Of a stretch of DNA of 9,233 nt, positions 1,948 to 9,218 are shown piece after piece; position 1 is the stretch's first letter; each line of letters begins with the position of its first letter. Where the stretch lies: positions 1 to 9,233 of the IMG/VR virus record IMGVR_UViG_2630968558_000007, one strand, 5' to 3'. The DNA comes from a virus. Its lineage: Duplodnaviria > Heunggongvirae > Uroviricota > Caudoviricetes. Made by a program: the position numbers and the translations under genes. The notes below the pieces were generated by a model. It was not told the origin of the DNA. It searched no databases and worked only from the letters and a program-made list of their open reading frames with translations.

Positions 1948-2337
1948 TTAACATTTTCTTTTTACTTTTCCAACAAAGGCTTTGGTTGAATCCATATTCC
2001 CATAACCAGAAATGGTTTTCGACATTAAAACTGTTCCATTAGGATGTATTACCCATGAGTCGATAACTCGTTGAGTTTCGCCATTCGCGCCGATTCCGAT
2101 GATGGAGTTTTTAGACAATGCTTTGTAAGCCATGCCGCCCGCATCCGTCCCAGAATATGTGATACTGGCATCTTCACCGTTTGTCTTAATGATGAATGTT
2201 CCACTAAAACCATCTTCTTCCGGTTGAAAATTATTTCGTTCTGAATAGCTTATTCCGTGCATATCTCCAACGACCCAGCACTCTGCTGAGACAGAAAACG
2301 AGAAGACAAAGAAAGCCATTGCTATAATCAATTTCAT
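1948..2337 (-). CDS. hypothetical secreted protein (predicted Sec signal peptide), third gene of the mnt operon
   Basis: 129-aa ORF. N-terminus MKLIIAMAFFVFSFSVSA|EC has a hydrophobic core and an AXA-like cleavage site, with no lipobox. Mature protein has Cys near both ends (ECWVV…KVKRKC). Start lies 15 nt after the stop of the upstream ORF, same strand as mnt. Visibly AT-rich. Confidence 0.55.
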   Translation of the reverse strand: MKLIIAMAFFVFSFSVSAECWVVGDMHGISYSERNNFQPEEDGFSGTFIIKTNGEDASITYSGTDAGGMAYKALSKNSIIGIGANGETQRVIDSWVIHPNGTVLMSKTISGYGNMDSTKAFVGKVKRKC

Positions 2338-2352
2338 TTTAAGCCCTTATTG

Positions 2353-2688
2353 TTATTGATTCTTTTTGCACGGAAATGTTTTTCCTACTGCTAGGGCGGT
2401 TAGTATAACTGCATTCTCATTTCTTGATTCTGGGTTTTTGTTTAGATATTTCTCAACGATATCGGTGTATTGATACATGTCAACGCCATCAGGAGGACAT
2501 AGAGAACCAATTAGTATCAATGAGTCAGTTACTCCGCGCAAATATCCAGTAATGTAAAGCGATGAAAAATCATCACCATTTTTACCTTGTTGAATGTTGT
2601 AAAGAAGGTCATTACCCGTTTGAAGCTCGCGCAGCTCAGCACTGGAAGAAGAGACAACTGCTAACAGGAACAGTGATAGAAATCTCAT
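2353..2688 (-). CDS. hypothetical secreted protein (predicted Sec signal peptide), translationally coupled to mnt
   Basis: 111-aa ORF. N-terminus MRFLSLFLLAVVSSSSA|EL is a signal peptide. Two Cys in the mature part (SLCPPDG, FPCKK). Its ATG overlaps the mnt stop in an ATGA arrangement (plus-strand tcat at 2685-2688). Confidence 0.55.
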   Translation of the reverse strand: MRFLSLFLLAVVSSSSAELRELQTGNDLLYNIQQGKNGDDFSSLYITGYLRGVTDSLILIGSLCPPDGVDMYQYTDIVEKYLNKNPESRNENAVILTALAVGKTFPCKKNQ

Positions 2689-3191: not shown

Positions 3192-3259
3192 AGTTGAAGC
3201 CCCAACTGCTGGAACAGTCAGGGCTTCGGTATCAACAAAACTTACGAGGTATTATTGAT

Positions 3260-4150
3260 ATGTCAAGCTTAGCAAAGTCAACTGTAAATTGCACTAATAG
3301 CATCATCATTTCTGACGTCAAGATTCATATGGATTCAGAGGGGCGTTACTCGCTTAATGACCTTCATGTAGCGTCTGGGAAGGAGGAAAAACATCAGCCA
3401 GCTTTCTTCATGCGTAGAAATGAAACTATTGAATTGATTAATGAAATTTTTAATTCTGCGGATATGCAGAATAAGAATCCCGTCCTTTCTAAGAAAGGTC
3501 GATATGGTGGAACCTACGTGTGCAAGGAGCTTGTTTACTCCTACGCCATGTGGATTAGTGCATCCTTTGCGCTGAAGGTTATCCGTGCATATGACGCAAT
3601 GGTTACTGCCACACAAGATAGGAAGGCTATTGGAGGTAAAACTTCAGTAGCTGAACGCACACCGCTACGAGATGCAGTAAACATGCTGGTAGGAAAGAAA
3701 GGACTTCGCTATGACGATGCATACAATATGGTTCATCAGCGTTTTGGTATTGACAGCATTGATGAACTTTCAATTGAACAAATCCCGCAAGCTGTAGAGT
3801 ACATCCACAGGGTGGTGCTTGAAGGTGAGTTCATCGGCAAACAAGAGAGGAAAGTCAACGAGCTTTCTGCAAAAGAAGCAAACAGCCTTGTATGGTTATG
3901 GGATTATGCCAACCGCTCACAGGCATTATTCCGCAAACTGTATCCGGCGCTGAAACAAATTCAATCGAACTATTCCGGCAGATGCTACGACTATGGTCAT
4001 GAGTTCTCGTATGTTATCGGAATGGCAAGAGACGTTTTAATAAACCACACACGAGATGTTGATATCAATGAGCCAGACGGACCAACGAATCTTTCCGCAT
4101 GGATGAGACTTAAGAATAAAGAATTACCTCCTTCAGTACATAACTACTGA
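3260..4150 (+). CDS. ant: antirepressor-like protein with N-terminal KilA-N domain (Ant position of immI)
   Basis: Position after arc as in P22. KilA-N-type motifs [13 protein letters not shown] and [25 protein letters not shown]. Preferred start is ATG 3260 (SD GAGGT at 3246-3250), giving 297 aa; the track ORF begins at TTG 3194, 2 nt after the arc stop and with no SD. Confidence 0.65.
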
Positions 4151-4169
4151 CAGATAACCAACGCAACGA

Positions 4170-4192
4170 CCCAGCTTCGGCTGGGTTTTTTT
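4170..4192 (+). terminator. Rho-independent terminator after ant (stem CCCAGC / GCTGGG, loop TTCG, then a 7-T run)
   Basis: Perfect 6-bp GC-rich stem at 4170-4175 and 4180-4185 with a 4-nt loop, followed directly by T7 at 4186-4192, about 20 nt after the ant stop. Confidence 0.7.
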
Positions 4193-4250
4193 ATGCCCAA
4201 AATTCACCGTAGCCATGCTGCGGCGATTCCTTGTATCTGGAGCAAATTAA

Positions 4251-6173
4251 ATGACAGACATTACAGCCAATGTGATTGTATCGATGCCTTCGCAACTCTT
4301 CACTATGGCACGTTCTTTTAAAGCCGTAGCCAATGGCAAAATTTATATAGGAAAAATTGACACTGACCCGGTAAATCCTGAAAACCAGATTCAGGTTTAT
4401 GTGGAGAATGAGGATGGTTCTCACGTTCCTGTTTCACAACCAATCATCATTAACGCTGCTGGATATCCGGTATATAACGGACAGATTGCCAAGTTCGTAA
4501 CTGTGCAAGGCCACTCTATGGCTGTTTATGATGCATATGGTGCGCAGCAGTTCTATTTTCCTAATGTGCTGAAGTACGACCCGGATCAGTTAAGGCAGCA
4601 GATTGAAGACCCTGATGGGGCAACCAAATATCCCGCATTGCAGATTTCTCGCTGGCGTGATGATTTAGACGTGCGTGGATGGGGAGTATTCCCGGATGGT
4701 ACAGATGTTACTGCTAAACTGTGTGAGGCATTGGATTATGCTAACGGTGATTATTCACAATTAGTTGAGTATGGGAAAAACAGAAAATCATTGCATATCC
4801 CTCCAGGCGATTATGTCGTTGATATGACCAAGCTGACTGGCATTCATGCTTCTGCTGGTCGCTTTGTGATCCGCTGTAACGTTGATTGTGTTGGCCGAAT
4901 CCCTAACGGGGATTTCCTAATCCTTCATAGTAAATCTATAAATGTAACTGGCCTTTCATGTAAATCGTTATACATTAGAGGGCTACAGTTTTCTATTATC
5001 TCGAACATTGATACGACCGGCGATATAAGATTTTTTTCATCAGACGCATACACTCTGCCTGGGTTGGTTGTATGGGGTGGCGGGAGTTATTGGAATCATT
5101 TTGTACGCATCAAAACAGGTACTGCGGCAGGTGGTGGCAGATTCATAATTGACATCTCTGATGGATCTATAAATCAAAATACATTTGAGCAGCTTTGCGG
5201 TGGTGGTCTGATCATAACTGGATCAGGTTTTAGTCGCCAGACCGGTGCTCCGTATGAGGGGAACGCAAACACATTTATAGGTCTTGACACATCGGGAAGC
5301 GGCGATTATTTGCTCTATAACAATAGCACCCCAAATCAGCATAATGTTGTGATAGGTTTGTATGGCGAGGTTACGGGCAATGGGAAAATACGTGGGCCGT
5401 GGACCATACTTGGCGCGCGTGCGCAATTTGGGGGCTGGGCCTCAACCATGAGCCCCATGAATACCATATTAGGGACAGACCCTACAGCAGGCTCACAGGG
5501 AGGAGAGACGTTCAGTGTCTCCGGTTCTAATCTTTGCCCTTCTGGAGATTGGTCGGTTATTGAAGGAGTCTACGGAGCACCGATTGACTTTTCCCTTTTA
5601 ACTATACCGAACGAACGAAAGGTTGGTTCTGACCCTAATGAACCATCTGGCTGCGGTAGATGGTTTGGAGTCACTAACGCATCTCAACGTTGCAGAATAA
5701 CCCTAAATTTAACTAAAACACAGTCAGGTTTCATTCGTGGAGCTTTTTACTTTAAAGGCGACACACCGCTTGAGATAGCTATAGAAGCTCAAGATGGTAC
5801 TAATACCATCTATATGCCAGTTAATATGTTCTACGATATGGGTGTTGGAGGGTGGAAGTTATACAAAGTTTCAGCGCCAACCAACGACAAAAGTAAAGCA
5901 TACAGATTAAGGATTACAGTTGAATCCGGAATGAGCGCTTATGTTGGAGGAGCGTATTTTAGCCAGTATAACGGAACCTTTCTTCCAGTATTCTGCGGAT
6001 GGGAGAAAGTAAAAATGAGATCTAGCGTAAAGCCTACTGTGACAGAGAACACAGGTTCTTTCCCAATCGGCTTGGTGTCCTACAGAACATCTCCAGCAAC
6101 ATATCCTTCCGACCCTACTGTCCAATGGGTGTGGAATGGAAGTACATGGGGGATTGTGAATATTTCTGCCTAA
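4251..6173 (+). CDS. tailspike protein (P22 gp9 / Sf6-type head-binding domain fused to a divergent receptor-binding domain)
   Basis: First ~113 aa ([50 protein letters not shown]…NVLKYDPDQ) are near-identical to the Sf6/HK620/P22 tailspike head-binding domain as recalled. The remaining ~525 aa are Gly/Ser/Thr/Asn-rich and consistent with a beta-helix receptor-binding domain. SD GGAG at 4239-4242. Confidence 0.9.
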
Positions 6174-6209: not shown

Positions 6210-7307
6210 TTATCTTGGAATATTTTTCTCGATATATTTATAGCTTAGTAGTGCAAAAGCTACAGATGTTATAAATACAATAAAAATAAACGAGAAGCTT
6301 TTTGATAAATCAGCCATCCCAAGCCAATCTATCATCTTAAAGCATAATATAAACGTAATTGGATGAACTAAATACAAAGAGTATGAAGCATCACCAATCA
6401 TGATGAAAATACGTGGTATTTTGATGTTGTCTTGTATGTAGTCAGAGCATGCAGTAAAGCATGCAAACATTATGCAAAAATATTTCCCTGAATGAAAAAT
6501 CCCATGCCCAGCATCAAACTGTGTTATGTAAGCCCATACAGGGATTATGATTCCAATCGAAATTAATGGTATTGCAATCCTTTTGTCTCTAATTGAAAAG
6601 TTACCACTTTTGTATAGGATAGCAATAATCGCACCGAAGACAAACTCCCAAATCAGGCTTTGCATGGTTAAATTTATATATCCTAAACCTTCAATTTTTG
6701 GTCTGTCGAATACACCCGCAATAGATGGCAAAGCTAACAGTGTAATGAAAAACCATAATATATAAAATGTATACCTAAACTTCCCCAGCGCTATTCCAAT
6801 GGCGCAAACTAAATAAAAATATATTTCATAATTGAGGGTCCATCCAACGAACAATGATGGAGGCCCAAAGTATATAGGTGACTCAGTGTTTAGTGGAATG
6901 AAAAGCAAACCTTTGATTATGTTTGTTAATTCAAATGAGCTAGATGATTGGTTATATGAAAACCCATGCATTAAAGATAAATCAACATTTTTAACAATGA
7001 CTATATATGCAATAGTCATGATGAAATATAGAGGCCAAACTCTTAAGAAACGTTTTTTAATAAACTTTATCAAATCATTGCTTTGGTAGCTATGAGACGT
7101 ATAAATTATGATAAAACCACTAATGATGAAAAATAAATCAACTCCGAATGCACCAGGCCAAAATAATCGCTGAGCCAGCCATTCATATTCTGTTCCTTTC
7201 AAAAAATCCCTTGCATGGCAAAGTACGACAAGCATAGCTGCAATAGCCCTAAGCGCCTGTATATACTGAAGGTTATTCTTTCTTGGTGGACTGTTATCGA
7301 TTTCCAA
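6210..7307 (-). CDS. acyltransferase-3 family integral membrane protein (O-antigen acetyltransferase, Oac-like serotype-conversion candidate)
   Basis: 365-aa polytopic hydrophobic protein with acyltransferase-3 signatures: N-terminal LRAIAAMLVVLCH, FGVDLFFIISGF, C-terminal SYSLYLVHP. Sits between tailspike and integrase where Sf6 carries oac. Visibly AT-rich. Apparent TTG start at 7307 with AGGTG 4 nt upstream. Confidence 0.8.
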   Translation of the reverse strand: MEIDNSPPRKNNLQYIQALRAIAAMLVVLCHARDFLKGTEYEWLAQRLFWPGAFGVDLFFIISGFIIIYTSHSYQSNDLIKFIKKRFLRVWPLYFIMTIAYIVIVKNVDLSLMHGFSYNQSSSSFELTNIIKGLLFIPLNTESPIYFGPPSLFVGWTLNYEIYFYLVCAIGIALGKFRYTFYILWFFITLLALPSIAGVFDRPKIEGLGYINLTMQSLIWEFVFGAIIAILYKSGNFSIRDKRIAIPLISIGIIIPVWAYITQFDAGHGIFHSGKYFCIMFACFTACSDYIQDNIKIPRIFIMIGDASYSLYLVHPITFILCFKMIDWLGMADLSKSFSFIFIVFITSVAFALLSYKYIEKNIPR

Positions 7308-7405
7308 AATACACCTATAATAGTTTTTTGATAAGTATCAGTAGCTTCTGAAAGGTCTGAAGTTTAGCACCACAAACGCTATTGATCGACACCGCCGATC
7401 AGTAA

Positions 7406-7425
7406 TACTGTATTAATATACAGTA
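7406..7425. promoter_or_regulatory. LexA (SOS) box TACTGTATTAATATACAGTA
   Basis: Perfect 20-bp palindrome fitting the E. coli LexA consensus CTGT-N8-ACAG; 17 nt upstream of the umuD'-like start codon, with SD GGAGGTGA at 7432-7439. Confidence 0.8.
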
Positions 7426-7442
7426 TCCATCGGAGGTGAGTT

Positions 7443-7829
7443 ATGGGATTCCCGAGTCCAGCACAAGACTACGTTGAAGAGCGCATATCGCTCGACAAGT
7501 GCATCATAAGCAGGCCAGCGGCAACGTACTTCATGCGAGCGGGTGCGACGCACTACCGGGAAGGTATCCTGAATGGCGCGCTGCTGGTTGTGGATGCTTC
7601 GCTATCACCATGCGACGGCTCATTACTTGTTTGCAGAATGGAAGGTGAGCTGAGGATTAAGCGATACCGCAAATCACCCAAGGTTCACCTGGAAGATTTG
7701 CAGACAGGAAGAAGGGAGGCTATACCTCTGCACGATGACGGAACGAGCCCTGATGCGATATTTGGCGTAATCACCTACATCATCAACGATGCGCGGACGG
7801 GTGAGTTTGATGATTGCCCGGTGATGTGA
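7443..7829 (+). CDS. UmuD'-like protein (S24 LexA/UmuD-family C-terminal domain, N-terminally pre-truncated, predicted non-catalytic)
   Basis: 128 aa. MGFPSPAQDYVEERISLD…ATYF… aligns with E. coli UmuD from Gly25 onward (UmuD: C|GFPSPAADYVEQRIDLN…SATYF). The UmuD GDSM catalytic-Ser motif is replaced by ATHY; the Lys-containing region is retained (ELRIKRY vs EFTVKKL). Strong SD, LexA box upstream, no umuC-like gene in the window. Confidence 0.8.
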   Translation: MGFPSPAQDYVEERISLDKCIISRPAATYFMRAGATHYREGILNGALLVVDASLSPCDGSLLVCRMEGELRIKRYRKSPKVHLEDLQTGRREAIPLHDDGTSPDAIFGVITYIINDARTGEFDDCPVM

Positions 7830-7899
7830 GACAGAAATGAGACACAAAAAGCTTTGCACTGAATTGCAAGGCTTAGTGCTGTCAGAGATATAGCGTTGG

Positions 7900-9057
7900 T
7901 TAGCCCACCTTTTCATCAAGCCAATCCGCCCACCACTGCATCATCTCCCTGCGCTTATCGAGATACTGAGCATGGTTGTAAATTCCACGCACAGATCCGC
8001 CATTGGCATGTGCCAGTTGCACTTCAATAGCATCAGCAGGCCATTCGTGCTCGTTCATAATCGTACTGAATTCATGCCTGAATCCGTGACCGCTTTCCAG
8101 ACCCTCATAGCCGATTTGTTTGATCACAAGTAATACCGCGTTCTCGCAGATTGGCTTCTTCTTATCATTACGCCCGGCAAAAACAAACTCTGATACTGGT
8201 TTGGTGATGGAGCTTAACGTAGTGAGAAGTTCAACCACTTGGTCCGACATCGGGACCACATGAATCTTGCGTCCCTTCATCACACTGGCGTCGATAGTGA
8301 TAATCCTGTTTTCAAAATCGACGTTCTTCCATAGCATAGAACGAAGCTCTTTCGTTCTTAGGGCTGTGTAGCGTAAAACTTTGGTCGCAATGAGCGATAC
8401 GATACTTCCTGAAAATGTTGCCAGTGCTTTGTTGAATGTCGGGATCTGGTCTGCAGGAAGAAACGGGAAGTTCTTCTTGCGGTATCCCTTCATGGCGTCA
8501 GCAAGATCAGGTGCCGGGTTATATTTAGCCCTTCCGGTGACAATAGCGTAACGGAAAACCTCGCCGCATCTTCTGCGTGCTTTGTTGGCTCGTTCCATTG
8601 CACCGCGATCTTCAAACCTGCGGATTACTTCAAGAAGTTGCATCGGCTCAATATCCTGAATTTCAAGACCGCCGATGATGGGTAAAATGTCGTCATCAAA
8701 CATTTTGGCAAGTTCAGTCGTATACCCTACAGACCAGACTTGCTTCTTGTGCTCGTACCATTCCTTGTAAATGGCGCTAAAGGAATTGTTGTTAGACGAA
8801 GCCTTTTTCGCCTTTACCGGATCGATGCCAACCGAGATGTCTTTCCTCGCAGTCCATGCTTTATCCCTTGCCTCTTGCAAAGTCATAAGCGGATATTTTC
8901 CGACGGTCAGGATTTTCTCCTTACCGTCAATCTTGTAGCGAAGCTGCCATACCTTTTTCCCTGACACAGGGACATAAAGGTACAGGCCATTACCATCGAG
9001 AAGGCGGTATGGTTTTTCTTTCGGCTTTGCTGCTTCAATCTGCTTAACGGTGAGCAT
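7900..9057 (-). CDS. int: P4-type tyrosine integrase (IntS-like, tRNA-Arg-associated)
   Basis: Product from ATG 9057 is 385 aa, MLTVKQIEAAKPKEKPYRLLDGNGLYLYVPVSGKKVWQLRY… (P4-type N-terminal arm-binding domain), with C-terminal catalytic motifs HGFRHEF and RGIYNHAQY. The track ORF extends to GTG 9093, a less likely start. Adjacent to a tRNA-Arg 3' end, like E. coli K-12 intS next to argW. Confidence 0.9.
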   Translation of the reverse strand: MLTVKQIEAAKPKEKPYRLLDGNGLYLYVPVSGKKVWQLRYKIDGKEKILTVGKYPLMTLQEARDKAWTARKDISVGIDPVKAKKASSNNNSFSAIYKEWYEHKKQVWSVGYTTELAKMFDDDILPIIGGLEIQDIEPMQLLEVIRRFEDRGAMERANKARRRCGEVFRYAIVTGRAKYNPAPDLADAMKGYRKKNFPFLPADQIPTFNKALATFSGSIVSLIATKVLRYTALRTKELRSMLWKNVDFENRIITIDASVMKGRKIHVVPMSDQVVELLTTLSSITKPVSEFVFAGRNDKKKPICENAVLLVIKQIGYEGLESGHGFRHEFSTIMNEHEWPADAIEVQLAHANGGSVRGIYNHAQYLDKRREMMQWWADWLDEKVG

Positions 9058-9218
9058 GGGTAAAAATCCGGTGGGTAAAATTATTTTATCCACTTTTTAC
9101 CCGTCATGGAGTGCGGCTGTCAACGATCTGACGCGAACCATTACGAACTGTGAATCTACGGAAGGCTTGATATTCAGGGGATTTTGCGGACTGGTACGGA
9201 TGGGAGCGAACTGATAAA

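Follow-up and report, generated by a model that had tools for sequence, protein, structure and literature searches.

The ORF at positions 7443 to 7829 encodes an intact, well-built and ordinary member of the HumD family, a family of phage proteins that is not new. We consider it likely that humD is a phage moron gene, which supplies a UmuD' that is active as made and is turned on by the SOS response of the host. The DNA analysed, hereafter the window, is the entire 9,233-bp contig JNBP01000177.1 of assembly GCA_000807695.3. The original prediction, made from the letters of this DNA, had described the ORF as an orphan, LexA-boxed and catalytically dead UmuD' mimic. As an observation this was partly confirmed, being largely right with two factual corrections, which concern the active-site motif and the palindrome of the LexA box. 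Its interpretation was partly supported: the kind of protein had been recognised correctly, the novelty claimed for it was wrong, and the "poisoning" was probably wrong.

Location and identity of humD

Annotation of ORFs, Pfam and PHROG families and Rfam RNAs revealed that the window is spanned by the late/right end of a P22-like prophage, with the following gene order:

82-1923, gp16-type DNA-transfer protein, the first gene of the window
after it and before mnt, minus strand, two small cargo genes, one of them encoding a Rap1a/Tai immunity protein
after the small cargo genes, mnt, arc, sar RNA and ant, in that order
3192-3258, sar RNA (Rfam scan)
4251-6173, tailspike with the P22 head-binding domain
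6210-7307, minus strand, acyltransferase (Acyl_transf_3, Pfam PF01757), the divergent neighbour of humD
7443-7829, plus strand, humD, pre-processed UmuD' homolog of 128 aa (NCBIfam NF051876, Pfam, PHROG and structure matches)
7900-9093, minus strand, IntS-type tyrosine integrase (Pfam Phage_integrase, Phage_int_M and Arm-DNA-bind_3), at the prophage edge

The tRNA and Rfam scans gave no match at the humD locus, the sar RNA being their sole match. Gene callers placed the start of the integrase at 9057, and its relatives in E. coli carry the annotation intS. In longer contigs encoding an identical HumD protein, the integrase is followed by a yfdC-like gene, mlaA, fadL and fadIJ, that is, by the host genes that surround the argW/intS site. 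humD comes last among the cargo genes, ahead of the integrase, and occupies the moron slot of an integrated P22-like prophage. The same slot in K-12 CPS-53 had been described as unoccupied, and the intS-yfdG interval of K-12 did read as empty. The acyltransferase probably serves O-antigen modification. Together with humD it forms a block with 97.7% identity to one in E. coli NCTC9038 and DAM, where the block lies at a different prophage site; the two genes travel as one cassette.

The start of the ORF is well defined. An in-frame TGA at 7437-7439 lies two codons before the humD ATG and rules out an N-terminal extension. When the protein was aligned with UmuD by phmmer, through a 105-sequence family profile and by MAFFT with K-12 UmuD, Met1-Gly2 of HumD fell on Cys24-Gly25 of UmuD in all three cases. 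This bore out the proposal that the ORF starts at the match of UmuD Gly25 and encodes the already-cleaved form.

The family assignment was supported at several levels. Over residues 1-128 the protein matched positions 1-129 of the 129 positions of NCBIfam NF051876, "HumD family translesion DNA polymerase", with 215 bits (cutoff 120). It also matched Pfam Peptidase_S24 (PF00717) with 35.3 bits (cutoff 23.3), as expected from the S24/UmuD domain proposed for it and in agreement with the alignments to UmuD and P1 HumD, and it matched PHROG 811, "UmuD-like". A phmmer search against PDB sequences retrieved the UmuD' structure 1UMU (E = 6e-19). The AlphaFold model of HumD had a mean pLDDT of 73.5, with values of 84-89 in the core, and the best PDB matches of this model in Foldseek were 1AY9 and 1UMU, both UmuD' (TM-score 0.75, target-normalised), followed by LexA C-terminal domains. 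UmuD' was thus the best match both by sequence and by fold.

Among phage proteins, the identity over the full length was 72% to HumD of P1 and P7, and reached 84% to gp26 of N15. Near-identical E. coli alleles have been named "HumD family translesion DNA polymerase" or "S24 family peptidase" by PGAP. The protein had been considered merely comparable to P1 HumD; the full-length match to an equivalog HMM and the 72% identity make it a HumD ortholog instead, and with this the claimed novelty is gone. Strong purifying selection acts on the gene (dN/dS 0.05-0.23 against 26 relatives), and the identical protein was found in several assemblies.

We then looked for the polymerase partner. The humD stop codon is separated from the convergent integrase gene by 70 nt and is followed by no umuC-like gene, so the layout of a umuDC-type operon is absent. 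No umuC was detected in the window, either by tblastn with K-12 UmuC or as an IMS-family Pfam match, which confirmed the orphan state that had been put forward. A umuC gene lying just beyond the contig, which would have made this an ordinary umuDC-type operon, was looked for by tblastn and Pfam in two further assemblies that contain this prophage (loci L005 and L006), and none was present in their 10-kb flanks.

The LexA box and the architecture of the family

The following elements were located at the humD locus, upstream of the gene and within it:

7380-7404, imperfect inverted repeat TATTGATCG-N7-CGATCAGTA (pair I3 of the repeat search, 9-nt arms, 89% complementary)
7382-7387, plus strand, candidate -35 hexamer TTGATC (read from the sequence, by analogy with K-12 umuDC)
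7406-7425, predicted LexA operator (SOS box) TACTGTATTAATATACAGTA, matching 18 of the 20 consensus positions
7432-7436, plus strand, Shine-Dalgarno sequence GGAGG, 6 nt before the ATG (read from the sequence)
7548-7550, plus strand, Thr36 codon, at the position of the UmuD Ser60 nucleophile (profile and MAFFT alignments)
7659-7661, plus strand, Lys73 codon, at the position of the UmuD Lys97 general base, with the lysine kept (phmmer, profile and MAFFT alignments)
7788-7826, plus strand, HumD-specific C-terminal extension NDARTGEFDDCPVM of 13 residues, the last 10 lying beyond the end of UmuD

With up to three mismatches allowed, the LexA box is the sole match found in the window, and none of 200 dinucleotide-preserving shuffles gave one. 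It ends exactly 17 nt before the humD ATG. It had been called a perfect 20-bp palindrome; the box and its spacing stood, and the palindrome was reduced to 8 of 10 pairs, the 9-nt arms enclosing a non-palindromic TAAT. The K-12 umuDC operator, TACTGTATATAAAAACAGTA, reaches the same count of 18 consensus matches out of 20.

A simple consensus scan of 7250-7950 with a 9-of-12 threshold found no sigma-70 promoter, and hence the humD promoter is proposed only by analogy with umuDC. Its candidate -10 element (AATACT or TACTGT) overlaps the left arm of the LexA box, and the arrangement TTGATC-N17-TACTGT upstream of K-12 umuDC compares with a spacing of N18 in the window. The candidate -35 is conserved in BTP1; it is overlapped by the inverted repeat, which carries two GATC sites. 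The Shine-Dalgarno sequence is, by its letters, a strong one.

The regulation of humD by LexA has been stated before (PMC9603915), and for the copy in the window repression by LexA would follow by analogy. In order to place this copy within its family, the LexA box and umuC were surveyed in 80 IMG/VR loci carrying humD. A LexA-type box was present within 400 nt upstream of humD in 79 of the 80 viral loci, and only one further such box occurred in the remaining 567 kb of the surveyed loci. As judged from sequence matches, the box is essentially universal in the family. It was found within 60 nt of humD in 48 of the 79 cases, most often at exactly 17 nt, and the other 31 boxes lay about 254-285 nt upstream, ahead of a small co-oriented ORF. 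The same loci were devoid of any UmuC homolog within 6 kb on either side of humD (0/80, tblastn), and the Met-Gly start was shared by 116 of 120 HumD relatives. The pre-processed start, the orphan state and the LexA box are family-wide and not special to the window.

The small upstream ORF of the other phages is predicted to be frequently co-transcribed with humD. It matched no Pfam family, and its only match was PHROG 3893, of unknown function.

In E. coli, blastn detected humD relatives in 1,105 of 5,426 complete genomes (~20%), where they were located on P1-like plasmids as well as on chromosomes. As cargo for lysogenic conversion humD is thus common, and it is often the last gene at the prophage edge, beside O-antigen-modification genes.

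Active site, C-terminal tail and function

The catalytic serine had been reported absent, with ATHY in place of the GDSM motif of UmuD, which would put a histidine at the position of the serine. The three independent alignments, together with P1 HumD, rejected this reading. In all of them the one-residue gap of HumD falls at UmuD Ser57, so that GDSM aligns with GATH, with Thr36 at the position of Ser60, His37 at that of Met61, and Asp59 replaced by alanine. The register is fixed by P1 HumD, which has ADSH at this point. There is therefore no serine, as claimed, but the motif had been read one residue off. Similarly, the label "catalytically dead" is plausible but had been mis-derived, since in the Ser/Lys dyad the serine is exchanged for threonine while Lys73 is intact. 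The question is in any case largely moot because HumD has no Ala/Cys-Gly cleavage site of its own: it begins at the glycine of that site.

The family displayed the same trend. Among 120 cluster representatives, threonine occupied the Ser60 column in 97, serine in 21 and alanine in 2; lysine occupied the Lys97 column in 117, and a histidine stood next to the nucleophile position in 109. P1 HumD, the sole member type with a functional record, falls in the serine-bearing minority (21/120). When 1.84 billion representatives were searched exhaustively with phmmer, more distant pre-processed proteins came up, which also start with MGFPSP. These had T (11), A (5), S (5), G (4) and others in the Ser60 column, and K (17), R (15) and others in the Lys97 column. 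For comparison, the serine was kept in 50 and the lysine in 57 of 71 full-length UmuD-like relatives. Such a decay of the dyad is the pattern expected once self-cleavage is unneeded and selection on catalysis is relaxed. The lack of a cleavage site, the exchange of serine for threonine and the decay in distant pre-processed relatives suggest that the protease chemistry of HumD is probably vestigial.

The C-terminus behaved in the opposite way. The UmuD profile PRK10276 stops at HumD residue 114, and R139 of UmuD aligns with R119 of HumD. The stretch that follows, EFDDCPVM, is near-invariant and the best conserved of the family. Counting from the C-terminus in 160 unique members, R at -11 and D at -5 were found in all 160, E at -8 and F at -7 in 159 each, and P at -3 in 155, and HumD of the window conforms to the family pattern ...NDARxGEFDDCPVM. 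The tail was retained in pre-processed relatives with only 43-54% identity, in which the catalytic residues had decayed, with variants such as ...EFDDTPF and ...EFHDNLPF in a few distant ones. It was absent from the full-length UmuD-like proteins compared with HumD, and in these comparisons it is specific to the HumD clade. Its pLDDT was below 50, and it is predicted to be flexible. The C-terminal tip of SSB is DFDDDIPF. EFDDCPVM resembles it in sequence, and the endings ...DDTPF and ...DNLPF of a few distant relatives do so as well. The tail may be an SSB-tip-like docking motif by which HumD-UmuC is delivered to, or competes at, SSB-client sites, although we regard this as doubtful; if true, lysogens of these phages would have a differently wired translesion pathway.

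The GenBank record of P1 states that HumD "functionally complements E. coli UmuD'", and the title of McLenigan et al. 1999 (J Bacteriol 181:7005) that it "facilitates SOS mutagenesis". In view of the complementation annotated for P1 HumD, the likeliest reading is that of a UmuD' surrogate, induced by SOS, with which host UmuC is armed while RecA*-dependent processing is bypassed, and not that of a poison. By analogy with the P1 ortholog and with what is known of UmuD', we propose the following course of events. In an undamaged lysogen, host LexA would sit on the operator at 7406-7425, over the -10 region of the promoter, and keep humD off. Upon DNA damage, active RecA* would promote self-cleavage of LexA, and humD would be transcribed and efficiently translated from its GGAGG site. 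Removal of Met1 would leave as the N-terminus of HumD the very glycine with which UmuD' begins after RecA*-mediated cleavage of UmuD, and the slow step of processing UmuD to UmuD' would be skipped. HumD would then fold like UmuD', dimerise and bind host UmuC and RecA*, giving a Pol V-type translesion polymerase. McLenigan and colleagues reportedly saw binding of UmuC and RecA* by P1 HumD, as well as weak complementation at low copy number. The benefit to be expected is that, during SOS and induction, lesions in damaged DNA of the host and the prophage are bypassed faster, with increased mutagenesis. A benefit of humD to the phage is unproven and remains conjecture, since humD of P1 is dispensable for lytic growth.

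Four other readings were weighed against the surrogate. HumD had been suggested to be a mimic that poisons host complexes, and it might act as a dominant-negative decoy, pairing with host UmuD or UmuD', or occupying UmuC, DinB or RecA*, and thereby blocking or redirecting translesion synthesis during induction. UmuD and UmuD' preferentially heterodimerise, and the arm GFPSPAxDYVExRIxL and the core of HumD are very similar to UmuD', so that mixed dimers are conceivable; the C-terminal tail, foreign to UmuD, also speaks for a poison. Nevertheless, the idea runs contrary to the sole functional data of the family, namely the note in the P1 record and the statement in the title of McLenigan et al. 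Moreover, HumD bears no sequence mark of lost partner-binding surfaces. Nohmi and colleagues are said to have found in 1988 that Ser60 is not needed for the function of UmuD' in mutagenesis, which likewise speaks against a poison. We consider poisoning improbable. Even less likely, in fact very unlikely, is that HumD docks in the groove of RecA*, like UmuD and LexA, and there either vies with LexA or the phage C2 repressor for co-protease activation, which would tune induction, or cleaves UmuD or a repressor in trans through its Thr/Ser-Lys pair. Against catalysis speak the poor performance of threonine as a nucleophile in peptidases with a Ser-Lys dyad, the additional loss of Asp59 and the decay of both dyad columns in the distant pre-processed relatives. 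In favour of this reading stand the retention, in the 120 close relatives, of a hydroxyl residue (T or S, 118), the lysine (117) and the neighbouring histidine (109), the existence of a UmuD-RecA filament structure (8GMT), and the intermolecular cleavage documented for UmuD-like proteins (McDonald et al. 1998).

The tail could also be what HumD acts through, if EFDDCPVM-COOH docked like the SSB tip and HumD were recruited to, or competed for, SSB-client proteins at stalled forks, a role not shared by UmuD'. Being flexible by prediction, absent from full-length UmuD-like proteins and better conserved than any other stretch, the tail outlasts the catalytic residues, and this argues for some role. 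On the other hand, its likeness to SSB is one of sequence, in most members the proline does not line up with that of SSB (CPVM vs IPF), and the tail might just as well serve as a degron or contact UmuC, so that we find a tail-driven function unlikely. Even with the surrogate preferred, HumD may act beyond substituting for UmuD', given that the near-invariant tail is absent from UmuD' and that the Thr/Ser-Lys pair is retained in close relatives. Finally, decaying copies do exist: humD carries a stop codon and a frameshift in BTP1 and related Salmonella phages, and many E. coli O157 genomes contain unannotated 3' fragments of it. That the copy in the window is such a functionless remnant is hardly credible, since its ORF is intact and equipped with a strong ribosome-binding site and an operator, identical proteins recur in several assemblies, and the dN/dS values led us to reject a pseudogene.

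Comparison with known systems

The gene family, its pre-processed design, the orphan status and the control by LexA were described for P1 in the 1990s-2000s. A curated NCBI model exists and covers the family, and annotation pipelines thus already name the gene. humD here matters little as a discovery, as it is a known family in a known type of location. The value of the check lies in the near-universal LexA box of the family and in how common humD is as lysogenic-conversion cargo.

HumD of P1 and P7, the prototype of NF051876, has 129 aa against 128 in the window, besides the full-length identity of 72% and the Met-Gly start at the N-terminus of UmuD'. The P1 protein ends in the same tail (GEFDDCPV-M/I) and lacks a umuC partner, and the LexA site annotated in P1 ends 19 nt before the humD ATG (17 nt in the window). 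It differs in having kept Asp-Ser (ADSH), where the protein of the window has GATH with threonine. P1 is also a plasmid-prophage with humD beside lxr and phd-doc, whereas humD of the window stands beside the integrase of an integrated prophage. The closest named relative is gp26 of N15 ("UmuD-like protein", 84% identity), which shares the GATHY motif with threonine; a LexA-type box, TACTGTATAAAAAAACAGTT, ends 15 nt before its ATG, and gp26 stands alone after the tail-fibre gene. N15, in contrast, is a siphovirus with a linear plasmid-prophage, and the neighbours differ (sopAB/par region).

The location in the window is matched by BTP1, a P22-like phage of Salmonella, and also by MG40 and ST-35, where the humD slot lies between an O-antigen-modification gene (gtrAC) and int. 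The 20-bp LexA box of BTP1 is identical and its upstream region nearly identical to those of the window, but its humD is a pseudogene, interrupted by a frameshift and by a stop codon where Tyr29 would be, and the annotation does not name it humD, while the copy in the window is intact. The P22-like cargo slot, which had been put forward as new, was thus already represented in BTP1 by a LexA box and a humD pseudogene.

The comparison with E. coli UmuD' (PDB 1UMU, 1AY9 and 1I4V) extends to the fold, to ~40% identity and to the N-terminus after processing, and umuDC of E. coli has a LexA operator of the same strength class and a promoter of the same layout. UmuD' originates from the RecA*-dependent cleavage of a 139-aa precursor co-transcribed with umuC, whereas HumD is made directly and is an orphan. 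HumD further departs from UmuD' by the threonine in place of Ser60 and by the 10-aa acidic C-terminal tail. MucA, RumA, ImpA and SamA of plasmids and ICEs resemble HumD in being S24-fold accessory subunits that are borne by mobile elements and controlled by SOS. Unlike HumD, they are full-length, self-cleaving proteins and, to our knowledge, are always paired with a gene for a umuC-type polymerase.

humD and its O-antigen-modification neighbours

We have compared the block formed by the acyltransferase gene, the LexA box and humD (window 6210-7829) with three other humD-carrying loci (L001, L009 and L010), and found that homology to the window ended at the humD stop codon. E. coli NCTC9038 and DAM carry this block at 97.7% identity, but there it forms the right-hand edge of another prophage, with sbcB and dacD on either side. 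The neighbours of humD in strain 1506 are gtrA/gtrB/gtrC instead of the acyltransferase gene. Among the 80 viral contigs, 24 ended with the humD stop codon. The conservation of the block, the gtr neighbours and the breaks at the stop codon show that humD moves together with genes for O-antigen modification, as cargo at the prophage edge.

Decayed copies of humD were also detected. The gene is a pseudogene in BTP1, MG40 and ST-35, broken by a frameshift and by a stop codon in place of that for Tyr29, and the opposite strand across the BTP1 copy is annotated as "hypothetical protein" FGG71_gp17. The equivalent minus-strand ORF of the window is, like FGG71_gp17, probably spurious. Many complete E. 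coli genomes carry unannotated humD fragments of ~240 nt that retain only the 3' two-thirds of the gene, these being probably remnants in Stx-type prophages.

L002 (Salmonella phage BTP1, NC_042346.1) 4001-4373: humD pseudogene region
Window 7674-7919, minus strand: 81-aa ORF, equivalent of FGG71_gp17
Matches H102-H111, chromosomes of E. coli O157:H7 and others: humD 3' fragments

Sequences upstream of humD

An inverted repeat, in part conserved in BTP1, overlaps the candidate -35 and holds two GATC (Dam) sites, and may serve as an additional site of regulation.

Window 7380-7404: TATTGATCG-N7-CGATCAGTA, immediately before the LexA box

Of the 80 IMG/VR viral loci, 31 (L038, L041, L050, L058, L079 and ~26 others) have a short ORF directly 5' of humD, 80-85 aa in length (PHROG 3893, without a Pfam family), which is not present in the window. 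In these 31 loci the ORF ends right against the start codon of humD and is itself preceded by the LexA box, so that the two genes make up an SOS operon with the small ORF first.

The HumD tail and the catalytic dyad

The C-terminus of HumD carries a clade-specific tail, near-invariant among 160 unique relatives, with no counterpart in UmuD or other full-length homologs. The tail is predicted to be disordered. Its sequence resembles the acidic C-terminal tip of SSB.

Window 7788-7826 (aa 116-128): tail NDARTGEFDDCPVM

Comparison of the relatives P0123-P0266, from the wider protein search, revealed that the Ser/Lys dyad is kept in full-length UmuD-like proteins and lost in distant proteins also starting with MGFPSP, with varied residues at both columns. 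This pattern seems to reflect a relaxation of selection on catalysis once the pro-peptide had been lost.

Other genes in the window

The DNA-transfer gene and mnt are separated by two small cargo genes (window 1948-2688, minus strand), and an antisense RNA was also identified.

1948-2337, minus strand: 129-aa protein with an N-terminal signal-like sequence (PHROG 2651, unknown function)
2353-2688, minus strand: Rap1a/Tai-family protein (type VI secretion immunity-like)
3192-3258, minus strand: sar antisense RNA (Rfam RF00262, 66 bits)

The sar RNA is positioned at the arc-ant junction, the same arrangement as in the P22 immI region.
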